Of a stretch of DNA of 64,000 bases, positions 5 to 54,148 are shown piece by piece. This DNA is from an uncultured virus (IMG/VR IMGVR_UViG_3300037423_001642). Taxonomy: Duplodnaviria > Heunggongvirae > Uroviricota > Caudoviricetes. The DNA is taken from IMG/VR virus record IMGVR_UViG_3300037423_001642, positions 1 through 64,000 of that record. The stretch is one strand, 5' to 3'. A program made the translations under genes and the position numbers. Under the pieces are notes generated by a model, which worked only from the letters and a program-made list of their open reading frames with translations, ran no database searches and was not told the origin of the DNA. Every line of letters starts with the position of its first letter. Position 1 is the first letter of the stretch.

Positions 5-316
5 ATGACCATTGGGGACATTATGGTAGATACTTCAAATCCGTTTTTTGGAAAAAAACATACCGCCGCTTCCCGCAAAAAAATTAAAGAAAATCATGTC
101 GGCATGACCGGCAAAAAACATTCCCCAGAAACGAAAGAAAAAATGTCAACGGCACACACGGGCCGGAATTGGGTTTACAAAGGAATGGTCACCAAATCTA
201 TTCCGAGTGAAGAACTGGATTCCTATCTCGAAAGCGGTTGGTTGAGAGGCAGAGCTATCGATAAAAGAGGATCGAAGAGCTACATGCTGAAATTTTTGTT
301 CGAAAATTCCCCTTGA
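5..316 (+). CDS. NUMOD3-motif DNA-binding protein (homing-endonuclease-related; no nuclease domain visible)
   Basis: Two NUMOD3-like motifs (NPFFGKKHTAASRKKIK, GMTGKKHSPETKEKMS). Alternative start at ATG 23 after GGGG. May extend beyond the window edge. Confidence 0.7.
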   Translation: MTIGDIMVDTSNPFFGKKHTAASRKKIKENHVGMTGKKHSPETKEKMSTAHTGRNWVYKGMVTKSIPSEELDSYLESGWLRGRAIDKRGSKSYMLKFLFENSP

Positions 317-2108: not shown

Positions 2109-2117
2109 TTTTTCTGC

Positions 2118-2146
2118 TTGACTCTTAAAAGCGAATAGATTATACA
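2118..2146 (+). promoter_or_regulatory. promoter of the tmRNA gene
   Basis: TTGACT-N17-TATACA just upstream of the acceptor piece. Confidence 0.65.
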
Positions 2147-2150
2147 TATA

Positions 2151-2470
2151 CTCGTTGTGATGAAGACGACTGAAAGGTATTCAGGACTCGGGGGCGGAAC
2201 CCGACTAGTCCACCACAACCAGATAGAGGGACGAAAGCCCGGCCAATAACACGGCGTCGTATGATGGCTGGCGTTCTATCTGGTTATGATGGGCTAGAAA
2301 CAGGATCGACTGGTACGTAATAGGAAGTTGGAGCAACCGGCATTGTACCGCCGTTATCGGGCTAAACACAATAAGAGACAACGATAACTTCGTTCCTCTG
2401 GCAATCGCTGCCTAATCAGCAGTAGCCAATGAGTTTTGGCGGTTGAACTTGGAAACAGAATCAACCGCCG
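2151..2470 (+). ncRNA. ssrA: circularly permuted two-piece tmRNA (alphaproteobacterial type)
   Basis: Acceptor piece ends with T-arm TCGGG-GGCGGAA-CCCGA then CTAGTCC-A-CCA (2215). Intervening segment is 2216-2290. Coding piece starts GGGCTAGAAACAGGATCGAC (2291). The acceptor stem has G3-U70. Tag frame 2377-2415 = DNDNFVPLAIAA*. 3' hairpin GGCGGTTGA/TCAACCGCC at 2438-2469. Confidence 0.93.
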
Positions 2471-40848: not shown

Positions 40849-41346
40849 ATGACGAAGTTTCTATTACCAGAAGAGAACGTACAGAAACGCCGAAAGGCAA
40901 AGAAGAAGTCTAAACTTCCACAACCAAAGTACTTTGTGGCTGAAAATCCTCACAAGTACGTTGGTGATCCAAACTGTATTATCGCAAGATCGAATCTGGA
41001 AAGAAAATTTTACAAAATATTTGACACCAACCCGGCAGTACTGAAATGGGGTTGTGAAGAGATGTACATCAGGTACAAGTCATCTATTGACGGTACGGTA
41101 CATCGTTATTTTCCGGATGCTGTTATAGAAATTAAGTCTCGATCAGGCAAAAAAATGCTCTATATGATCGAAATTAAGCCAAAAAAACAGTGTTTTCCCC
41201 CAAAAAATAGCAAATCCAAGCGGTTTTTGACGGAACAAGTCACTTATCAGACGAATCAAGACAAATGGAAAGCAGCCACGGAATTCTGTAAATCCCATGG
41301 CATGATCTTTCACGTGCTAACAGAAGAGCATGTAGGCGGCTTCTAA
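40849..41346 (+). CDS. 4: head completion nuclease gp4 (TnsA-like)
   Basis: NPHKYVGD, RSNLERKF, HRYFPD, IEIKPKKQ, NQDKWKAA. Confidence 0.92.
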   Translation: MTKFLLPEENVQKRRKAKKKSKLPQPKYFVAENPHKYVGDPNCIIARSNLERKFYKIFDTNPAVLKWGCEEMYIRYKSSIDGTVHRYFPDAVIEIKSRSGKKMLYMIEIKPKKQCFPPKNSKSKRFLTEQVTYQTNQDKWKAATEFCKSHGMIFHVLTEEHVGGF

Positions 41347-41829
41347 GCGTAATATCCGAGATACACTACCGGGATGAACCTCACTTCGAAGTCATCGCTT
41401 CCGTACAGTTTCTCCAAAATATTCTTCGCCATATCTTCGTTGTGATGACATACCGGCAGACAGCTTGAAAACCTTGGGGGAATTTTGCCCCACTCTTCCC
41501 GGCGCTTCTGAAAGCAAACTCCCCGTTCCTTATGGACAACCCAATAGGAGTTGACGATGCATTCTCCGTTTTTGGGATTCTCCAATTTTTCCAACGGCAT
41601 GAAGAAGAGACGTTCAATGTCCATTGAGAAACACCTTCTTTTTGATGAATTCTTCCATGTCGCCCTGAAATTTCAGGTACACGGAAATTGGGTATAGGTT
41701 TTCGAACCCATGAGCCCGCAGTCGAATGGTTTCTTTGTCATAGTCGATGATCGCCTTGACCTTGTGTCCATCGATTTTGTAGAGTCGTTCGACATTATTT
41801 TTCTCTTCCGAGATAACAACGAACGACAT
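41343..41829 (-). other. two small hypothetical CDS (41343-41624, 41614-41829)
   Basis: Contiguous overlapping ORFs. Confidence 0.6.
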
Positions 41830-42299
41830 CAGATTCGAGTTCCATCCGGTCGGACCTTCACTCCATCCTTGTCTGTCGGATCACACGGGTGATGGCCCCA
41901 GACCGCAAAATATTTGTCTCGCATCAGCTTCTTTCCATTAATCCAAAAAGCCCAACGTCGGGAAGGCTTTCCAGTTATAAGAAATGTCCAAGTTCCCGGC
42001 AAGACATTTTGCACGGAATGACGAAATTCGGCGGGCCGATACCTGAACATGCCTGCCCGTAGCGTTTCTTTGAAGGAAAATCCCTCTTTTGGCGTGATCG
42101 ACACGTCATCATAGCCACCTTTCAGAATAAAGGTGAGAAACCAGTACGGATGATCATGATAGGCCCGATGATCGTCATCACCAAGCCAATGATGGAGCCG
42201 AAGGGAAATGAAGCCGAAATCGAGAACATACCGATAAAAGTACGGACATTCTTTCAGACCGCCCGGCTGTTTCCATGTGAGTTTGGGAAGAAATCTCAT
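41829..42299 (-). CDS. cupin-fold protein
   Basis: LRLHHWLGDDDHRAYHDHPYWF.TFILKGGY...RPAEFRHSV. Confidence 0.7.
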   Translation of the reverse strand: MRFLPKLTWKQPGGLKECPYFYRYVLDFGFISLRLHHWLGDDDHRAYHDHPYWFLTFILKGGYDDVSITPKEGFSFKETLRAGMFRYRPAEFRHSVQNVLPGTWTFLITGKPSRRWAFWINGKKLMRDKYFAVWGHHPCDPTDKDGVKVRPDGTRI

Positions 42300-42586
42300 T
42301 GATCGCTCTTCGCAAATTCCTTGGCGGCATTGACCCAATAATGACCGGCCATGCCAAGAGTACAAGCGAGAATATTGGCGAGAGCGTCAAGCTTGCCTTC
42401 AATGACAGCCAACTCACGTTTTGTCACTTTGTGCGTGGCAGCGAGTTTGTCCGATGAACGGCACAGATTGACCATTCGAACCCAGATAAGAGCCTGTGTC
42501 TTATCAAACTTCCAACCCGCTGGCGCTGACCACTGTTGCGGTCCACTAAGTGAGTCGATTGTTACTTTCTGGATTTTCATAAACAA
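42296..42586 (-). CDS. hypothetical protein
   Basis: Overlaps both neighbours. Confidence 0.55.
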   Translation of the reverse strand: MFMKIQKVTIDSLSGPQQWSAPAGWKFDKTQALIWVRMVNLCRSSDKLAATHKVTKRELAVIEGKLDALANILACTLGMAGHYWVNAAKEFAKSDQ

Positions 42587-43016
42587 TTAGCCCCGATTCC
42601 ACATTCTTTCCGTCTATCTGGAACATATCATAAGGAAGCGGATGGTAATTGTCAATATATTTCTCAATATTTTGAGAATCTTTACGGACCAGTGCGACAA
42701 GTTTGCCGCCCGGTCGTAAAAAGGTAATAGCGTGATCGACGTGGGGGATTGAATTTTTTGGCGGGCACATAAGCACCGCATCGAATCGGCCAAGGAAATC
42801 CAGTGAACTATATGACATGGAAAGAAAGTCACGGTTGAACACAATGAAGCTATTCCGAAGCTTCATTGCCAGTTCCTTGTTCAGTTCAACACATGTGACT
42901 CGGGCACCAACGGCAACAGCGGCCATCGCAAGATTGCCGCCGCCAGCCGAGGGTTCCAACACTCTGTCATATTTCTGGATACCGGCAATCTTGACCATTT
43001 CATGGGCCAAGAACAT
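42546..43016 (-). CDS. amino-methyltransferase-like SAM-dependent MTase (start uncertain)
   Basis: VLEPSAGGGNLA, VELN, RDFL, FDAVLMCPP (NPP-like motif IV), LRPGGKLVAL; frame stays open upstream to 43136. Confidence 0.75.
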   Translation of the reverse strand: MFLAHEMVKIAGIQKYDRVLEPSAGGGNLAMAAVAVGARVTCVELNKELAMKLRNSFIVFNRDFLSMSYSSLDFLGRFDAVLMCPPKNSIPHVDHAITFLRPGGKLVALVRKDSQNIEKYIDNYHPLPYDMFQIDGKNVESGLIVYENPESNNRLT

Positions 43017-43039
43017 CGGTGTTTCCGTTGCGGGAAGAT

Positions 43040-43287
43040 TGGTCCGGTGGGAAGGGTTCGAACCCCCGACACCAAGGCTTTCATCCGTGTATTCTGCATC
43101 ATTAAACATTGGAGCTACCATTGTCCTTTGATGCATACATTAAGGAATTACGGACGTTACTAAGTATCATATCGTCATGCAAAGTGTTGCAACACCTTAC
43201 ATTATTGTTTGACACCGTTGGCATCTTTAGGTTTCCCTTCGGTTCCTTCTTACGGTCCTTGTGCTCTACCAACTGAGCTACCACCGG
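43040..43287 (-). tRNA. tRNA(Phe, GAA)-like gene interrupted by a 172-nt insertion in the anticodon loop
   Basis: CCGGTGG-TA-GCTC-AGTTGGTA-GAGC-A-CAAGG-A[172 nt]TGAAAG-CCTTG-GTGTC-GGGGG-TTCGAAC-CCTTC-CCACCGG-A-CCA; all four stems pair. Confidence 0.85.
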
Positions 43288-43296
43288 ATTACGCTT

Positions 43297-43324
43297 GATA
43301 TAAGCGAGGATTATTGAATGTCAA
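43297..43324 (-). promoter_or_regulatory. promoter of the interrupted tRNA
   Basis: TTGACA-N16-TATATC, 10 nt upstream of the tRNA 5' end. Confidence 0.7.
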
Positions 43325-43598
43325 CACCTATTTTGATCTTTTTTGCCGTGATGGTCCTTTCATATCTCTCCATGAGAAGTCTGAGGATATCGGCAATTTC
43401 GGAATCATTACAGGCGACCGTAAGGGTTTTGAGTCCACCCTTGTATGATGGAATATAAACTTCATATAGCATATGTGTCCCTTAACCGGTTATGCCCCCG
43501 GTTTCCCATAACGAAAGTTCTATACGGTTTCAGGACGTGGTACAACCCCAAAAAAGGTCAGACATTCCATCTTGACACCGTTTTTGATTGATTCGGCC

Positions 43599-43630
43599 TT
43601 GACGATTTCAATATTTTGATTATATTGAAA
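43599..43630 (+). promoter_or_regulatory. early promoter overlapped by an inverted repeat
   Basis: TTGACG-N16-TATATT; TTTCAATAT (43606-43614)/ATATTGAAA (43622-43630). Confidence 0.6.
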
Positions 43631-43647
43631 TAAAAAGAGGAATTGAC

Positions 43648-43869
43648 ATGGCACGATTTAAAGATAAGAAGCTCCAAAAGGTGTTCGACCTTTACAGCAA
43701 GATCCCGCCAACGAAGCGTGGTGATGCTCTCTTGGCCAAATACTATTTCAACGGATTGGAATATCCAAATAAAGAAAACTTAAAGCCAGAACGAGGCACG
43801 TTTGCCTATGCGGCTTGGGCAGCGGGCCACGCACTGGCCAAACAAAGAGAAAAGACACAGAATGAATGA
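43648..43869 (+). CDS. hypothetical protein
   Basis: GAGG SD; first gene after the promoter. Confidence 0.7.
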   Translation: MARFKDKKLQKVFDLYSKIPPTKRGDALLAKYYFNGLEYPNKENLKPERGTFAYAAWAAGHALAKQREKTQNE

Positions 43870-44686
43870 CTTTCCAGCGATCATTGATTTGAGCGGCTAT
43901 ACGGAGAAGATGCGGAAATCTTTTCTGGAAAAGACTTTCTTCCTCACTAAAATTCCAGCAACCGTCTACATGGATTTCGGATGTGCCGATGGCAGCATGA
44001 TCGAATTCATGTTCAAGATGTTTCCGGAATATCGATATTTCGGGTATGACAACGATCCGAAAATGATCGAAATGGCAAAGAAGCTGAACATTCCGAACGC
44101 CTTCTTTTCCACGGACTATGACGCAATTGTCAAGGCCATGAACGACTACGATTCACAAAGAAAGACCGAAGGGAAACCACCGGCCATTCGAGCGGTCATA
44201 TGTTCATCGCTCATTCATGAAATTTGTTCATATGCGCAACCGGGAAGCATGACGGTGACGCAATTTTGGAATCGAATTCGTTCGAATTACCATTACGTCT
44301 GCATCCGTGACATGGCGATGACGGAGGAAGCCGAAAAATATGATGTCAGCACTCACGACGTTTGGCAGATTGCCAAATTCTTCCTGAAAAATGAGGATGA
44401 TGTCTATATCCTTGGAGATTTTCAGAAGAAATATGGGGAAATCACCAAACTAAAGCAGATGGTTCACTTTCTTCTGAAATATCGGTATAAGAACAATTGG
44501 GAGCGGGAGCTAAACGAGAACTACTTGCCGCTCACGGTCGAAAAAATTCTAGAAGAATTTAGTCACAAGGAAATTGTTTATCAGAACCATTACCTTCTAC
44601 CATTTTTGAAAGATCGTGTAAAAACCGATTTCAACATCGATCTTAAAGAAGCGACTCACTTGCAATTGATCGTGAAGTTGCGCTAA
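43862..44686 (+). CDS. class I SAM-dependent methyltransferase
   Basis: MDFGCADG, FGYDND..MIEMA, SSLIHEI, IRDM. Confidence 0.8.
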   Translation: MNDFPAIIDLSGYTEKMRKSFLEKTFFLTKIPATVYMDFGCADGSMIEFMFKMFPEYRYFGYDNDPKMIEMAKKLNIPNAFFSTDYDAIVKAMNDYDSQRKTEGKPPAIRAVICSSLIHEICSYAQPGSMTVTQFWNRIRSNYHYVCIRDMAMTEEAEKYDVSTHDVWQIAKFFLKNEDDVYILGDFQKKYGEITKLKQMVHFLLKYRYKNNWERELNENYLPLTVEKILEEFSHKEIVYQNHYLLPFLKDRVKTDFNIDLKEATHLQLIVKLR

Positions 44687-45384
44687 TCTCAATCGTGGTT
44701 GTTCTAGTGAGAAGCTGAACATCACCGACGATATGATATTTGGTTTGGCCATGCTTGATTTGAGCAATGGCCTTATCCACAGCCTTTGCATCATCGAACC
44801 ATAGCTGGTCGATTGGGTCTTCAACCCATCGAACTTCATTAGCCCATGGGCCGTATTCAACAACGCCAAGCGGCAAATAGATATTGCCGTCATTGTCTCG
44901 GGCTAACACCCGAGCCGAATGTTGCGTTTTGATCGTTCGGGAAACTAGCATCTGGCGAGGAAATCTCCCGGCTTTTGCACAGCTTTGTGAATTTCATTCA
45001 GCTTCGATTGCTGGCCTTCCGGATAAGTTTTGTCGATATCGTGAACAAACACCATGTCCAGATGCGCCTTGATACACGCCGTCTGTTCAGCATTCAAATC
45101 ATTAGGTTTGCTCAATTCGAACATCCCCTGCAACCAATAACAAAATTCTACTGCTTTCATTGTACCTTTTCCAACTTTGAGAAATAAGATCGTTTGGCCA
45201 AAATGTCGGTCGAATCTCGATTGATACGTAATACCAATCGAGTGCCAATAGCAGGCAGCGAACGATCAAGTTTACTTAGAAGAACATGATCATAGAGAAG
45301 ATCAATCTTTTCATCCACTGTAAGATCATCTAATTTGAAAATAAATTGATCTAACTTAGGTTTATTTTTTGTAAAAGGCCACAC
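44643..45384 (-). other. three small hypothetical CDS (44643-44951, 44945-45160, 45157-45384)
   Basis: Contiguous overlapping ORFs. Confidence 0.6.
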
Positions 45385-51639: not shown

Positions 51640-51984
51640 TCAAAGTTTCCCCAAATCGGCAGACGCCTTTTCGATAAAGGAATCGAGAAATTTCAGCACA
51701 TCGTCATGGCTTCGGTAGGACCAGTCATTGAAACCGGCAAGGCTGGAATAGCCATAATTGGTCGCAAGATGTTGTTTAAGCGCATCCCAAATTTCACAAT
51801 CAAAAGTTCGATGTTCGATGGCTTTGTGGATTGCCCCTTCAAGACACCAGCACACGGCAGTCTTGTCATAGGCAGAGACTTTCTCGCCCTTGGAATCACG
51901 GGCGAACGTACCGATTGTCCAATTCTTTTCATCGGTCAAAATCTTGCGAGCCTGAATAGCGGTTTGGAGTGTTTCAGGATGCAT
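51640..51984 (-). CDS. paralogue family A (DUF6197-like), copy 6
   Basis: WTIG..A..G..AVCWCLEGA...FND...HDDV. Confidence 0.8.
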   Translation of the reverse strand: MHPETLQTAIQARKILTDEKNWTIGTFARDSKGEKVSAYDKTAVCWCLEGAIHKAIEHRTFDCEIWDALKQHLATNYGYSSLAGFNDWSYRSHDDVLKFLDSFIEKASADLGKL

Positions 51985-52309
51985 CGTTCTCTCCAATCAA
52001 TTCGTCCAGCTTGGCCAGTACGGCGGCATGTGTGGTTTTCTTGTCATCATTGAAACCCATCATGTAGCCGCCCGGAAACAACGGATCGATTTCGTCATAG
52101 AGCGCAACGAATTCGGATGAATGATGCGGGATCACCGCCTTGTTGAAGGCACCTTCAAGGCACCAGCACACGGCTTTGGGCGAAAGGGAACGAACGTCCC
52201 TTCCCTTGTCGTCAACCGCATAATGTCCCTGAACCCAAGCCTCTTTTTCGGCAAGCAGAGCCCGCATGTCTTTGAGTATGGCCTTGGCCTTGTCGGACAG
52301 TTTTTTCAC
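51974..52309 (-). CDS. paralogue family A, copy 5
   Basis: WVQG..AVCWCLEGA...FNDD..THAAV. Confidence 0.8.
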   Translation of the reverse strand: MKKLSDKAKAILKDMRALLAEKEAWVQGHYAVDDKGRDVRSLSPKAVCWCLEGAFNKAVIPHHSSEFVALYDEIDPLFPGGYMMGFNDDKKTTHAAVLAKLDELIGENDAS

Positions 52310-52677
52310 GTCTCGATTTCCCTTGAATGATTTTCGATAGCCCGGTCGATCACGGCAATGACATCTTCATATTTCGTGGTGTATGCATCATTCCATGAAG
52401 GAATAGAGACATAGCGTGTCAACGTCGGATCGATGGCTATTGCAAGAACCGCCATGGTTCTGGAAAATTCCGACTCTCCCGTCTCACAAAGAGGCATTTT
52501 TCGAGCTACCAAGGCCACGGCACCAGTCAGACACCAGCAAACCGCTTCGCCCGATTCATAGGAGACAACCCCACCATCGTCCTGTCGGGCCGATGCCCCT
52601 TGAGTCCAGCGTTCGGGAGAATTCAAAACTTCTTCCTTCACACTTTTCAGAATTTCGAGTGTCTTCGTGTCTTTCAT
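52306..52677 (-). CDS. paralogue family A, copy 4
   Basis: WTQG..AVCWCLTGA...WND..YEDV..IDRAI. Confidence 0.8.
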   Translation of the reverse strand: MKDTKTLEILKSVKEEVLNSPERWTQGASARQDDGGVVSYESGEAVCWCLTGAVALVARKMPLCETGESEFSRTMAVLAIAIDPTLTRYVSIPSWNDAYTTKYEDVIAVIDRAIENHSREIET

Positions 52678-52898
52678 CCGATTTCTTCCATCAAATACTT
52701 TGCCGCCACATAGGGACAATCATCGGAATGTTCCACGGTATGTGAAGAATTGATTGAATATTCGTTACAATATTCGCACCGATAATGAATATTCCGGCCC
52801 CGGTCATCTTCCTGAACGGCCCGTTCGATGATCGTCTCACAGACCAGTTTCAGCTTGGCCGTTTCAATCTTGTTCAACAAAAGACTTGCCATGATCAC
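52674..52898 (-). CDS. small Cys/His-rich hypothetical protein
   Basis: YRCEYC...HSDDCP; ATGA overlap with the downstream gene. Confidence 0.6.
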   Translation of the reverse strand: MIMASLLLNKIETAKLKLVCETIIERAVQEDDRGRNIHYRCEYCNEYSINSSHTVEHSDDCPYVAAKYLMEEIG

Positions 52899-53245
52899 AC
52901 CCTTTCAGATTCCTTTGCCCGCTCAATCGCTTGGTCGAGCATGGCTATGACTTCGGAATGTTCCCGGTCGATTTGATCATTCCAGAGGGTCAGGGGATAG
53001 TCGATAATTCTCCGGATCACCGCCCGAGCCGACTCATAGGTATCATCCCACACAGGCATCGAAAGGTTGTGATCGCTCAAAATCTTTTGGACACCGCCAG
53101 CCAAGCACCAGCGACACGCTGCCGGATCATTGACGCCAACCCCTTCACCATCGATGGTGATGGCCATATTGTACTGTGTCCAACGGCTTGGGTCGGACAG
53201 AAGCTCACGGGTTTCCGTGAGAATTTGTGATGTTGGAATGGTCAT
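52895..53245 (-). CDS. paralogue family A, copy 3
   Basis: WTQ..ACRWCLAGG...WND..HSEV..LDQAI. Confidence 0.8.
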   Translation of the reverse strand: MTIPTSQILTETRELLSDPSRWTQYNMAITIDGEGVGVNDPAACRWCLAGGVQKILSDHNLSMPVWDDTYESARAVIRRIIDYPLTLWNDQIDREHSEVIAMLDQAIERAKESERV

Positions 53246-53601
53246 TTTATTTTGTTCGCCTTTGCTTTTTCGGAAAGCTTTTCTTTCGCTATGGCCTTGT
53301 CGAGAATATTGATCACATCGTCATAGGTGCGACCGATATTGTCGTTCCAAATGGCGATGGAAACGCCAGCGGCATCAGCGGGCCGAATGGCATTGGACAG
53401 AGCCCATAGGCCCTTGGACCAGCGCTCATTGATGCCACCACAAACATGAGCCAAGGCCCCGGAAAGACACCAGCACACGGCGTCGGGATGACCCCAACCA
53501 ACCGAATTGCGATTGGCATCATGCGCCATTGCACCCTTGGTCCACTTGTCCGGCGAGGAAAGCAGCGCCTTGGTCTTTTCCAGACTTTCCAACTTGTTCA
53601 T
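53242..53601 (-). CDS. paralogue family A, copy 2
   Basis: WTKG..AVCWCLSGA...WND..YDDV..LDKAI. Confidence 0.8.
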   Translation of the reverse strand: MNKLESLEKTKALLSSPDKWTKGAMAHDANRNSVGWGHPDAVCWCLSGALAHVCGGINERWSKGLWALSNAIRPADAAGVSIAIWNDNIGRTYDDVINILDKAIAKEKLSEKAKANKIK

Positions 53602-53957
53602 CAGTTTGCCGCCCGATTGTCCATCATCGTTTGTGCCGTTCGTGCCAGCGCAATTGCCTTGTCGAAGATTTCCATGACATCGGCGTGAGTCGTTTCCGGC
53701 TTGTCGTTGAAGCGATGCATTTGGTCATTGCCCGGAATGACTTCATAGAGAGTCCGGCGAGCATCGTCATAATCTTTTGTGGGAGAGGCAAAGCCGGTGA
53801 CTCGAAGCAGCGCCCCATTCATGCAGAAGCGGCAGGCATAAGGGTCTAGGATGGCCGTTGAGACACCATCGGAATCGGTTGCATTCGAGCCCTTGACCCA
53901 GAATTCAGGCTTGGAAATCAGTTCCTTGGCCTTTTCGAGAACCGTAACAGTTTGCAC
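53601..53957 (-). CDS. paralogue family A, copy 1
   Basis: WVKG..ACRFCMNGA...FND..THADV..FDKAI; GTG start after AAGGGGA (alternative ATG at 53984). Confidence 0.8.
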   Translation of the reverse strand: MQTVTVLEKAKELISKPEFWVKGSNATDSDGVSTAILDPYACRFCMNGALLRVTGFASPTKDYDDARRTLYEVIPGNDQMHRFNDKPETTHADVMEIFDKAIALARTAQTMMDNRAAN

Positions 53958-53983
53958 GTCTAATCCCCTTTCGAAAAATTTCA

Positions 53984-54148
53984 TGGTGTGGGGAGGAGTC
54001 GAACCTTGCCACTAATGACGTATTCGGTCCACGGGTTCTAAGTCCGCAACTAAACGTCACTGCACAGACCTCTTGGCTACTAACTGATTTCCAGACAGGT
54101 AATGCGCACTTCCTGCTTTCTATCGAGCTTTGACCTCACTGTCACACC
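53984..54148 (-). ncRNA. 165-nt tRNA-like structured RNA
   Basis: 5' GGTGTG pairs with 3' CACACC-A; T-loop AGG-TTCGACT-CCT; D-arm-like TAGCCAAGAGGTC; long stem AGTGACGT/ACGTCATT; promoter TTGACA-N17-TAAATG at 54156-54184. Confidence 0.7.

Follow-up and report, generated by a model that had tools for sequence, protein, structure and literature searches.

The window examined here is a stretch of 64,000 nucleotides from an uncultured virus, the first 64 kb of the 76.9-kb IMG/VR record IMGVR_UViG_3300037423_001642; the complete contig of 256,052 bp designated G001 represents the same phage. Pfam matches (gp32, gp15, neck protein, gp8, gp6, gp25, gp5, and gp53) identify it as a T4-like myovirus. 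The subject of this study is a 248-nt gene on the minus strand encoding a tRNA-shaped RNA, in which a structured insert lies between the two strands of the anticodon stem. Identical copies of the gene are present in two further IMG/VR contigs. Its features are listed below; a position in the RNA is given by 43288 minus the window coordinate.

43040..43287, minus strand: the whole tRNA-shaped RNA gene, 248 nt (ARAGORN with introns allowed, fold z score, family comparison)
43257..43287, minus strand: 5' part, with the acceptor 5' strand (C1), U8 and A9, the D arm, A26, and the anticodon-stem 5' strand CAAGG
43085..43256, minus strand: structured insert of 172 nt (the "slot" domain) with a CCGU/ACGG closing stem (ARAGORN, fold)
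43078..43084, minus strand: the seven residues AUGAAAG (A32 U33 G34 A35 A36 A37 G38)
43040..43077, minus strand: 3' part, with the anticodon-stem 3' strand, the variable loop GUGUC, the T arm, the acceptor 3' strand, A73, and CCA
43295..43324, minus strand: promoter-like TTGACA, 18 nt, TATCAA, ending 7 nt upstream of C1 (direct reading)

A default ARAGORN scan of the window called no tRNA. With introns allowed, the program reported a tRNA-Phe(GAA) of 76 nt carrying a 172-nt insert between positions 31 and 32. Direct reading gave an acceptor stem CCGGUGG/CCACCGG with C1–G72, followed by ACCA; a D arm GCUC-AGUUGGUA-GAGC; an anticodon stem CAAGG/CCUUG; and a T arm GGGGG-UUCGAAC-CCUUC, with all four arms regular. 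The intact cloverleaf with encoded CCA proposed in a preliminary description of this DNA was therefore borne out, on the minus strand. The same description had an insert of 172 nt closed by CCGT/ACGG, in agreement with both the ARAGORN call and the minimum-energy fold, and every helix that it listed is found in that fold (CCGU/ACGG, AAGGAA/UUCCUU, AGG-GAAA-CCU, GAUGCC/GGUGUC, an 11-bp hairpin, GACG/CGUC, and UGCAUCA/UGAUGCA). All seven AUGAAAG residues lie 3' of the insert and form a bulge in the unspliced RNA; ARAGORN confirmed that removal of the insert would assemble them into a loop with a GAA triplet and the unusual A32/G38. The whole RNA folds at −87 kcal/mol, compared with −63.05 ± 4.42 kcal/mol for shuffled sequences (z −5.42; 0 of 200 shuffles as good). 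The insert is present in a single copy in the record. Two other details of the preliminary description stood in part. The GGA direct repeat was found at both junctions but is not conserved in relatives, and the promoter-like element can be read upstream of the gene (TTGACA at 43324–43319 and TATCAA at 43300–43295), although a consensus promoter scan did not call it.

Downstream of the RNA gene, and partly overlapping it, are three open reading frames (ORFs) on the same strand.

42546..43136, minus strand: small class I S-adenosylmethionine (SAM) methyltransferase with motif IV CPP (NPP in relatives)
42296..42586, minus strand: 96-aa ORF between the methyltransferase and cupin genes, also present at locus L164, with no family match
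41829..42299, minus strand: 156-aa cupin-like protein, the last gene of the module

The 3' part of the RNA matched an unannotated 675-bp gap in the Caulobacter phages CcrColossus and CcrPW, where two tandem genes of the same design carry inserts of 200 and 172/173 nt. Related RNAs were also found in a contig of 278,859 bp (G002; locus L012; 168-nt insert), in Brevundimonas phage Bajun (two copies upstream of the module), and in two nearer relatives of the window phage, L164 (146-nt insert) and L165 (145-nt insert). In Rhizobium phage RHph_Y1_11 (hereafter RHph), an annotated 240-aa "DNA methyltransferase" coding sequence reads through the RNA gene. The RNA is thus annotated as part of a protein in RHph and is unannotated in CcrColossus, CcrPW, and Bajun. 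In addition to these cultured phages, approximately 20 uncultured phage contigs carry equivalent RNAs. The window methyltransferase aligns at 36–42% identity and the cupin at 53–58% with their counterparts in CcrColossus, CcrPW, and G002 (both genes) and Bajun (cupin).

The known RNAs sit just upstream of a gene for a small amino-type SAM methyltransferase, a conserved 3-His cupin, or both; they share the strand of the next ORF and lie 0–40 nt upstream of it or overlap it. A small class I SAM methyltransferase follows every GAA-type RNA, and at distant loci, where the methyltransferase is absent, the tRNA-like gene directly abuts the cupin gene. Using the cupin as bait, 34 IMG/VR loci were collected, and the count was made on the 28 that are distinct and have a complete upstream window; those dropped were four duplicates (L162, L183, L189, and L195) and two loci truncated upstream (L173 and L193), both of which carry the RNA. 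ARAGORN (introns allowed, same strand) placed a tRNA-like call within 1.3 kb upstream of the cupin at 20 of the 28 loci and downstream at 4. The RNA was recognized by pattern or by eye at five more (L172, L177, L178, L185, and L194), and the architecture recurs in at least 25 of the 28, which puts the feature well past a chance occurrence. The module is found in both T4-like myoviruses and CbK-like siphoviruses. Membership of the proposed family was defined by a tRNA body with a first pair other than G1 (C1–G72 or A1–U72), A73, A35, an aberrant or split 32–33 side, and a same-strand position upstream of a cupin gene or a methyltransferase–cupin pair. The window RNA has all of these features. 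In a full-text literature search, neither this RNA nor its link to a cupin or methyltransferase turned up, and a family of phage tRNA mimics heading a conserved gene module is apparently undescribed.

Beyond the cupin-linked loci, a metagenome pattern scan gave no new family member among the matches listed, which comprised DnaK and dehydrogenase genes, ordinary tRNAs, and tRNA-Phe 3' fragments near mobile-element genes. A scan of GTDB genomes with the cupin profile (one peptide pattern, five stretches) confirmed no relative, which is weak evidence for a phage-only family. The tRNAs with junction-like loops in L146 and L015 were rejected as members, as the module does not lie downstream and they were picked by the design of the pattern. 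Positions 675–935 of L146, from an unrelated AT-rich phage, hold odd tRNA genes with an 8-nt loop (ACCGAACG), a 6-nt loop, and a 16-nt insert. Isolated tRNA-Phe 3' fragments starting in the anticodon loop, beside small genes of mobile-element type, were seen in five metagenome contigs (L105, L112, L118, L121, and L131); these look like attachment-site remnants and not family relatives.

A comparison of the RNAs revealed which parts of the tRNA are maintained. Twenty-nine RNAs were parsed, and 24 were used to count pairing after three mis-registered by the parser and two near-duplicates were set aside. In the acceptor, anticodon, and T stems, 400 of 408 cells are paired, compared with 257.9 ± 9.5 (maximum 300) when partners were shuffled in 500 trials, and up to five pair types occur at a single stem position. 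The parser picked D-loop and variable-loop lengths for best pairing, giving a slight bias toward the D and anticodon stems; fixed offsets served for the acceptor and T arms. By this partner-shuffle test the stems covary, and the tRNA shape is under selection. Almost every one of the 29 RNAs begins with C (or A) in place of G, the 7-bp acceptor stem and the D and T arms are kept, A73 is found in 26, and CCA is often encoded. A35, counted from the 3' side, is also present in 26 of the 29, within the triplets GAA (13 RNAs), NAC (10), and GAU (2). The retained parts, with the 3' half of the anticodon loop, comprise all that tRNA-handling enzymes recognize.

The 5' side of the anticodon loop behaves differently. 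U33 occurs in only 14 of the 29 RNAs, and the slot separating the anticodon-stem strands can be as short as 7 nt or as long as 207 nt. Among five RNAs with a plain 7-nt loop, none has U33, and four others have loops of 8 or 9 nt. RHph and L170 carry C33, the loop of Baj1 is 8 nt long, and that of L172 is lost. Inserts of 18–200 nt are all placed 5' of the seven loop residues, and more than 15 divergent RNAs have one at this same site. The U-turn that the ribosome requires is formed by the 5' half of the anticodon loop. From these sequences, the family rule seems to be that the tRNA body and nucleotides 34–38 are kept and the 32–33 side is disabled, either by substitution or by an inserted domain. 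The phage represented by G002 offers an internal reference: its 43 tRNAs include a canonical tRNA-Phe (G1–C72, loop CUGAAAA) unrelated in sequence to its interrupted gene, and the C1–G72 and A32 of the window RNA differ from that canonical form.

The inserts themselves evolve rapidly. No 6-mer is common to three or more of the four insert types, and global alignments are no better than those of shuffled sequences (z 0.4–1.8). The turnover is evident between the window and L164, where the flanks and tRNA parts are 75–86% identical (86% for the 5' part) and the inserts give no blastn match; in addition, the 3' junction of L164 carries "AUGAAAR plus stem strand" as a 12-nt duplication. Between the second copies of CcrColossus and CcrPW (Col2 and PW2), compensatory double changes occur at 8 of 72 predicted pairs. 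Judged by these substitutions, the inserts are real structured, functional RNA and not a scar. A hairpin loop (CUUCA and variants) complementary to the anticodon bulge over at least 5 nt, and predicted to be open, was found in all five RNAs of the GAAG type (Col1, Col2, L012, Baj1, and Baj2) and in none of the three of the window lineage (the window RNA, L164, and L165). Pairing of the anticodon bulge with a built-in "codon" loop was therefore rejected as a general feature and does not apply to the window.

The preliminary description also stated that the insert belongs to no recognized intron class and called for an Rfam check against group I and group II introns; with that check run, the statement holds. 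At gathering scores, the sole Rfam match in the window is the alpha-type tmRNA of the phage at 2114–2469. At E ≤ 10, the region 42800–43500 has no match to a group I or group II intron or a ribozyme, only a 15.1-bit partial tRNA match in the 3' part and a CRISPR-repeat match attributable to chance. No group I match was obtained at E ≤ 10 for CcrColossus (L002, 1150–1900), and at E ≤ 1 none of the 13 matches across 12 related loci (59,689 bases) falls on the RNAs of the family. A positive control was available at L192 (1190–1460), where the group I model RF00028 detects an intron in tRNA-Asn(GUU) with 70.1 bits (E 9e−16), in a tRNA cluster upstream of that locus's own cupin-linked tRNA mimic; the model therefore does pick up phage tRNA introns of ~200 nt. 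On these searches, which had a working control, group I and group II introns and known ribozymes were rejected. The junction bases agree: the insert ends in G, no choice of junctions combines this terminal G with a U before the 5' site, and wherever a 7-nt loop would remain, the base before that site is G31 (or A32). On a group I core, the comparison extended to shared 6-mers, none of which recurs in three or more of the four insert types, and to the global alignments, which did not exceed shuffles. Group II introns have a six-domain structure with domain V and usually exceed 400 nt; the insert measures just 172 nt. No bulge-helix-bulge motif was found on reading, since the junctions lie directly opposite one another with no 4-bp spacer helix, and the splicing endonuclease family PF01974 was found in none of five phage genomes, with positive controls in four archaea; splicing by this route was rejected. 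ARAGORN reports no tmRNA in the region of the RNA gene, and the Y RNA model YrlA (RF02553) has no match in the window. Relative to a decoding elongator tRNA-Phe, the RNA has the cloverleaf, but its 7-nt anticodon loop is interrupted. An origin as a miniature inverted-repeat transposable element (MITE) or insertion scar was rejected on the basis of the single copy, the unconserved junction repeat, and the compensatory changes in the insert helices.

The two enzymes of the module differ in their degree of conservation. The methyltransferase shows 36–42% identity across lineages, and its nearest solved relatives are amino-methyltransferases of the RsmD, KsgA/Erm, and TaqI types. The cupin (145–180 aa) is much better conserved, at 53–88% identity, and has invariant H36, H48, H50, H94, H136, H137, and C139 as well as invariant Glu; 614 homologues were found at E ≤ 0.001. 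The AlphaFold model of the cupin (pLDDT 93.3) most closely resembles ergothioneine dioxygenase, oxalate decarboxylase, and quercetinase in the PDB. No Pfam family matches it, and Foldseek returns generic metal cupins only (TM ~0.55); on the modeled fold, the 145–180-aa protein is a cupin, labeled "cysteine dioxygenase" in PHROGs. Most of the nearest ESM Atlas clusters carry viral taxon labels. In three phages, the cupin gene has an in-frame TAG 4–5 codons before the motif LGLPECPY, after a normal Shine–Dalgarno (SD)-ATG (L179, 2460–2530; L185 and L194, 2480–2530). L179 also has two tRNA(CUA) genes, and TAG probably encodes an amino acid in these phages.

In several phages the methyltransferase frame continues into the RNA gene. 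The N-terminal motif RTNLxATxTP follows an ordinary SD-ATG downstream of the RNA in Bajun and L169. The RNA and the METHYLTRANSFERASE gene overlap in the window, L164, L170, L172, and RHph, where the R-T codons coincide with the acceptor 3' strand and ACCA (CGG ACC A). There is no in-frame start between the RNA and this motif in the window, L164, and RHph: the window frame is open back into the insert, with in-frame ATGs at 43136, 43121, and 43109, the first ATG past the RNA (43017) lies downstream of the conserved ATETP, and the RHph frame reaches an SD-ATG 13 nt upstream of the RNA. The AUG of AUGAA was rejected as the methyltransferase start; it is out of frame (68 nt to the ATG of the frame). 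In L173, L180, and L182, the sole in-frame ATG before the conserved cupin N terminus lies in the anticodon loop. These reading frames suggest dual coding, whereby the 3' end of the RNA would also specify the N terminus of the methyltransferase. If so, a single transcript would be either processed into the RNA or translated. Other members are organized differently. L165 has a terminator hairpin after the RNA, as well as a promoter-like site and an ATG of the methyltransferase's own, so the RNA can be a stand-alone gene, and in phages of the Dolichocephalovirinae two tandem RNA copies are followed by an ordinary SD-ATG.

Expression data consist of the contigs of one metatranscriptome run, with a depth of 2–3.5 and possible DNA carry-over. 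A contig of 168 nt covers 43103–43270, corresponding to the insert and 14 nt of the 5' part in unspliced form, and two contigs cover the methyltransferase (42744–43033). The rest of 42000–44800, including 43034–43102, has no RNA contig in this low-depth run. No spliced junction was found in it, although contigs of this depth could miss a joint. Two variants come from a single low-depth RNA contig, 43202 T>C (at a G·U pair of the 11-bp hairpin) and 43155 C>T (which would break C114–G133), and were not used as evidence. The contigs are compatible with transcription of the locus; the ends, strand, and splicing state of the RNA are beyond their reach.

The same odd RNA precedes the same enzyme genes in many unrelated phages, which makes a helper RNA likelier than a tRNA awaiting splicing. 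We therefore tentatively favor a reading, held at somewhat less than even confidence, in which the window RNA is a tRNA mimic that is neither spliced nor used for decoding and that acts as a substrate, carrier, or scaffold for the methyltransferase and cupin encoded downstream. In this scheme, the 248-nt gene would give rise to a tRNA-shaped RNA derived from tRNA-Phe and used without splicing or codon reading. Its own promoter would drive the RNA along with the enzyme genes, and the RNA would fold as an L shape with an extra arm and would serve as a dedicated partner of both enzymes, either as a substrate or as a carrier of something on which they act. Charging by phenylalanyl-tRNA synthetase (PheRS) could persist because G34-A35-A36, A73, and U20 are kept, and in the window lineage the choice between processing and translation may couple the two outputs. 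A more speculative version, which we consider improbable, casts the family as private, ribosome-proof amino-acid carriers: host-charged (by PheRS, or by ValRS or IleRS), deprived of the U-turn, and holding an amino acid that the methyltransferase and thiol-dioxygenase-like cupin would modify, unless the RNA itself is what they modify. If true, this would be a phage-encoded, tRNA-dependent, non-ribosomal pathway, and in the window lineage its DNA would additionally encode an enzyme N terminus in the RNA 3' end.

Several observations weigh against the non-decoding mimic, and most of them bear on its chief competitor, a genuine tRNA-Phe(GAA) with a new, protein-dependent type of intron. Here, an endonuclease or the insert would cut after G31 and after the last G of the insert, with the closing helix setting the junctions side by side atop the anticodon stem, and a phage ligase (RtcB, or Pnkp with Rnl1 in a T4-like phage) would join the ends. 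When the insert is removed exactly, what remains is a 76-nt cloverleaf that has U33, GAA, and a purine at position 37, and 10 of the 13 GAA-type RNAs likewise give such a usable loop (RUGAAR-); in those compared, insert and 5' part each end in G. Outside this type, L193 without its insert gives a canonical CUUACAU. Three of the four phage genomes examined lack another tRNA-Phe, as a real spliced tRNA-Phe would predict: G001 has 23 ordinary tRNAs, Bajun has 27, and CcrColossus, within the same range of 23–27, has no uninterrupted tRNA-Phe. RNA ligases are encoded in all five phages (RtcB in four, T4-type Rnl1 and an Rnl2-like enzyme in the window phage), and such genes are common in jumbo phages (Iyer et al. 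2021, PMC7824862). Unclassified, "enigmatic" introns have also been published for the tRNA genes of Lak megaphages (Devoto et al. 2019, PMC6784885). The missing tRNA-Phe and the ligases keep a spliced tRNA-Phe a live rival for the GAA branch. We nevertheless consider it unlikely. No ribozyme or intron model matches despite the working control, no 6-mer recurs in three or more of the four insert types as a common sequence core would require, and the splicing endonuclease gene is absent from the five genomes; relatives without an insert could not decode, and in some other members the loop has C33, is 8 nt long, or is lost. A32 and C1–G72 are atypical, G002 has a canonical tRNA-Phe as well, and in the window, L164, and RHph, maturation of the 3' end would sever the methyltransferase mRNA from its start. 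The one RNA run contained no spliced junction, though its contigs could miss one. Their shallow coverage and possible DNA origin equally limit what they can lend to an unspliced RNA. The two possibilities set out in the preliminary description, a new intron or ribozyme and a tRNA-scaffolded noncoding RNA, thus fare differently: the noncoding RNA is favored by the insert-less loops, none of which (0/5) has U33, and by the tie to the gene module, whereas the intron or ribozyme found no positive support.

The remaining objections concern the partnership with the enzymes. The nearest folds of the cupin are small-molecule enzymes, the PHROG relatives of the methyltransferase carry the label DNA methyltransferase, no tRNA-like gene was seen at three cupin loci (L174, L187, and L190), and the link between RNA and enzymes could be purely regulatory. 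This last point can be stated as an alternative, in which the RNA is a cis-acting leader, a tRNA-mimic operator or processing signal that governs how the methyltransferase and cupin messages are translated or how stable they are, for example by binding the module's own products or by RNase P cleavage, with no role as a free RNA. The same-strand position 0–40 nt upstream of or overlapping the next ORF, the methyltransferase frame open into the RNA gene with its N-terminal motif in the RNA 3' end (window, L164, and RHph_Y1_11), and the placement of the sole in-frame cupin ATG of L173, L180, and L182 would all suit a leader. We judge it rather unlikely, as the L165 terminator separates RNA from methyltransferase, the Dolichocephalovirinae copies precede an ordinary SD-ATG, the full tRNA body, A73-CCA, and D/T-loop tertiary residues exceed the needs of an operator, and the start-codon assignments derive from ORFs only. 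A decoy function in anti-defense appears quite doubtful. In this case an uncleavable tRNA look-alike would titrate a host tRNA-targeting nuclease or sensor, and the neighboring enzymes would be unrelated or separately anti-defensive. A design that keeps nucleotides 34–38 and destroys 32–33 fits such a decoy, the very fast turnover of inserts between related phages is as expected in an arms race, and these phages invest in RNA repair genes (Iyer et al. 2021, PMC7824862). The decoy leaves the strict linkage to the cupin/methyltransferase module and the structured domain of 145–200 nt unexplained, and the analysis turned up no anticodon nuclease known to act on tRNA-Phe, -Val, or -Ile. A functionless tRNA gene disrupted by a scar or MITE-like insertion is very improbable. 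The short GGA repeat and the CCGU/ACGG terminal inverted repeat recall such an event, but the conservation data already contradict it: the insert is a single copy, the same site is filled in more than 15 divergent RNAs, the inserts show compensatory changes, the cloverleaf stems covary, and the junction repeat is not conserved.

Several other genes in and around these loci were recorded. The window tmRNA (2114–2469, plus strand) is of the alpha-type, a permuted, two-piece form (RF01849, 126.3 bits), and ARAGORN finds a tmRNA in Bajun as well. Six tandem DUF6197 (PF19698) paralogues occupy 51640–53984 (minus strand; E 1e−14 to 1e−17 each). An ORF with a TnsA-like endonuclease N-terminal domain (40849–41346, plus strand) lies between the baseplate genes and the module, on the strand opposite to the latter, and an ORF with a NUMOD3 motif lies at 5–316 (plus strand); both are likely homing-endonuclease-type genes. 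Divergent from the RNA gene, 43802–44686 (plus strand) encodes an unrelated SAM methyltransferase of 294 aa (Methyltransf_31/12/25; weak PHROG match "tRNA methyltransferase"). In G002, the ORF directly upstream of the RNA (L021, 529–867) has a weak match to PTH2 (peptidyl-tRNA hydrolase 2; E 0.0011), below the Pfam cut-off.

Odd tRNAs are plentiful in phage genomes and are skipped by annotation pipelines. In the present family, the oddity follows rules: the design is conserved, the insertion slot varies, and a methyltransferase and cupin are the constant partners across T4-like myoviruses and CbK-like siphoviruses. A vague class thereby becomes a testable system in cultured phage–host pairs (Caulobacter, Brevundimonas, and Rhizobium), in which splicing by a new route, charging, modification, and action as an operator can be told apart. 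The window lineage may also offer an example of a structured RNA gene with a 3' end that serves at the same time as coding sequence. A practical caution is that intron-aware tRNA finders mislabel such mimics as intron-bearing tRNAs.

Comparison with known systems places the family between several of them. The group I introns of tRNAs (RF00028, as in L192) resemble the window insert in being structured anticodon-loop inserts of ~200 nt that end in G within a bacterial-type tRNA gene. They differ in having a model match and a U before the 5' junction, both lacking in the window insert, in having a conserved core, which it apparently also lacks, and in being inserted within or after the anticodon, whereas the window insert lies at 31/32. 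tmRNA, of which phage copies exist, similarly joins an acceptor/T-arm module to a large extra domain at the site of the anticodon arm; in contrast to the complete cloverleaf found here, which has no tmRNA match, it lacks the D and anticodon stems and has a tag reading frame. T4 RNA C and D ("species 1 and 2") and the staphylococcal non-proteinogenic tRNA-Gly are processed like tRNAs and are not used in ordinary decoding, and the latter carries its amino acid for a non-ribosomal enzyme. We know of no methyltransferase/cupin link or variable 31/32 insert for either.

YrlA-type Y RNAs (RF02553) are non-decoding RNAs with a tRNA body, normal D and T arms, and an "anticodon stem" running into another domain, and they occur in phages with RNA-repair genes. 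Their acceptor is closed and they end in a Ro-binding stem, whereas the window RNA has an open acceptor with ACCA and is closed on the anticodon side. A YrlA reading of the CcrColossus tandem was rejected; it scores 25.3 bits, against a gathering score of 69 bits, spans two genes, and leaves the acceptor strands unpaired. CcrColossus does contain two tandem YrlA-like RNAs elsewhere (L224, JX100810.1 106500–111500; record 108720–109456, minus strand), just upstream of gp139 (TROVE/Ro-type). They have a T arm, a closed acceptor hairpin, and a D arm, and only a 68-nt piece is annotated, as "tRNA-Gln". Together with gp139 they constitute a phage Ro–Y RNA system ~130 kb away and separate from the tRNA mimics. 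For the Lak introns the comparison is one of description, not of sequence. In the available part of that report (Devoto et al. 2019, PMC6784885), they are presented as introns of decoding tRNAs in the tRNA clusters of Prevotella phages, with no methyltransferase or cupin link reported there. What they have in common with the present family is a phage tRNA gene split in the anticodon region by a conserved, Rfam-unclassified insert, and one Lak insert may itself fold like a tRNA.

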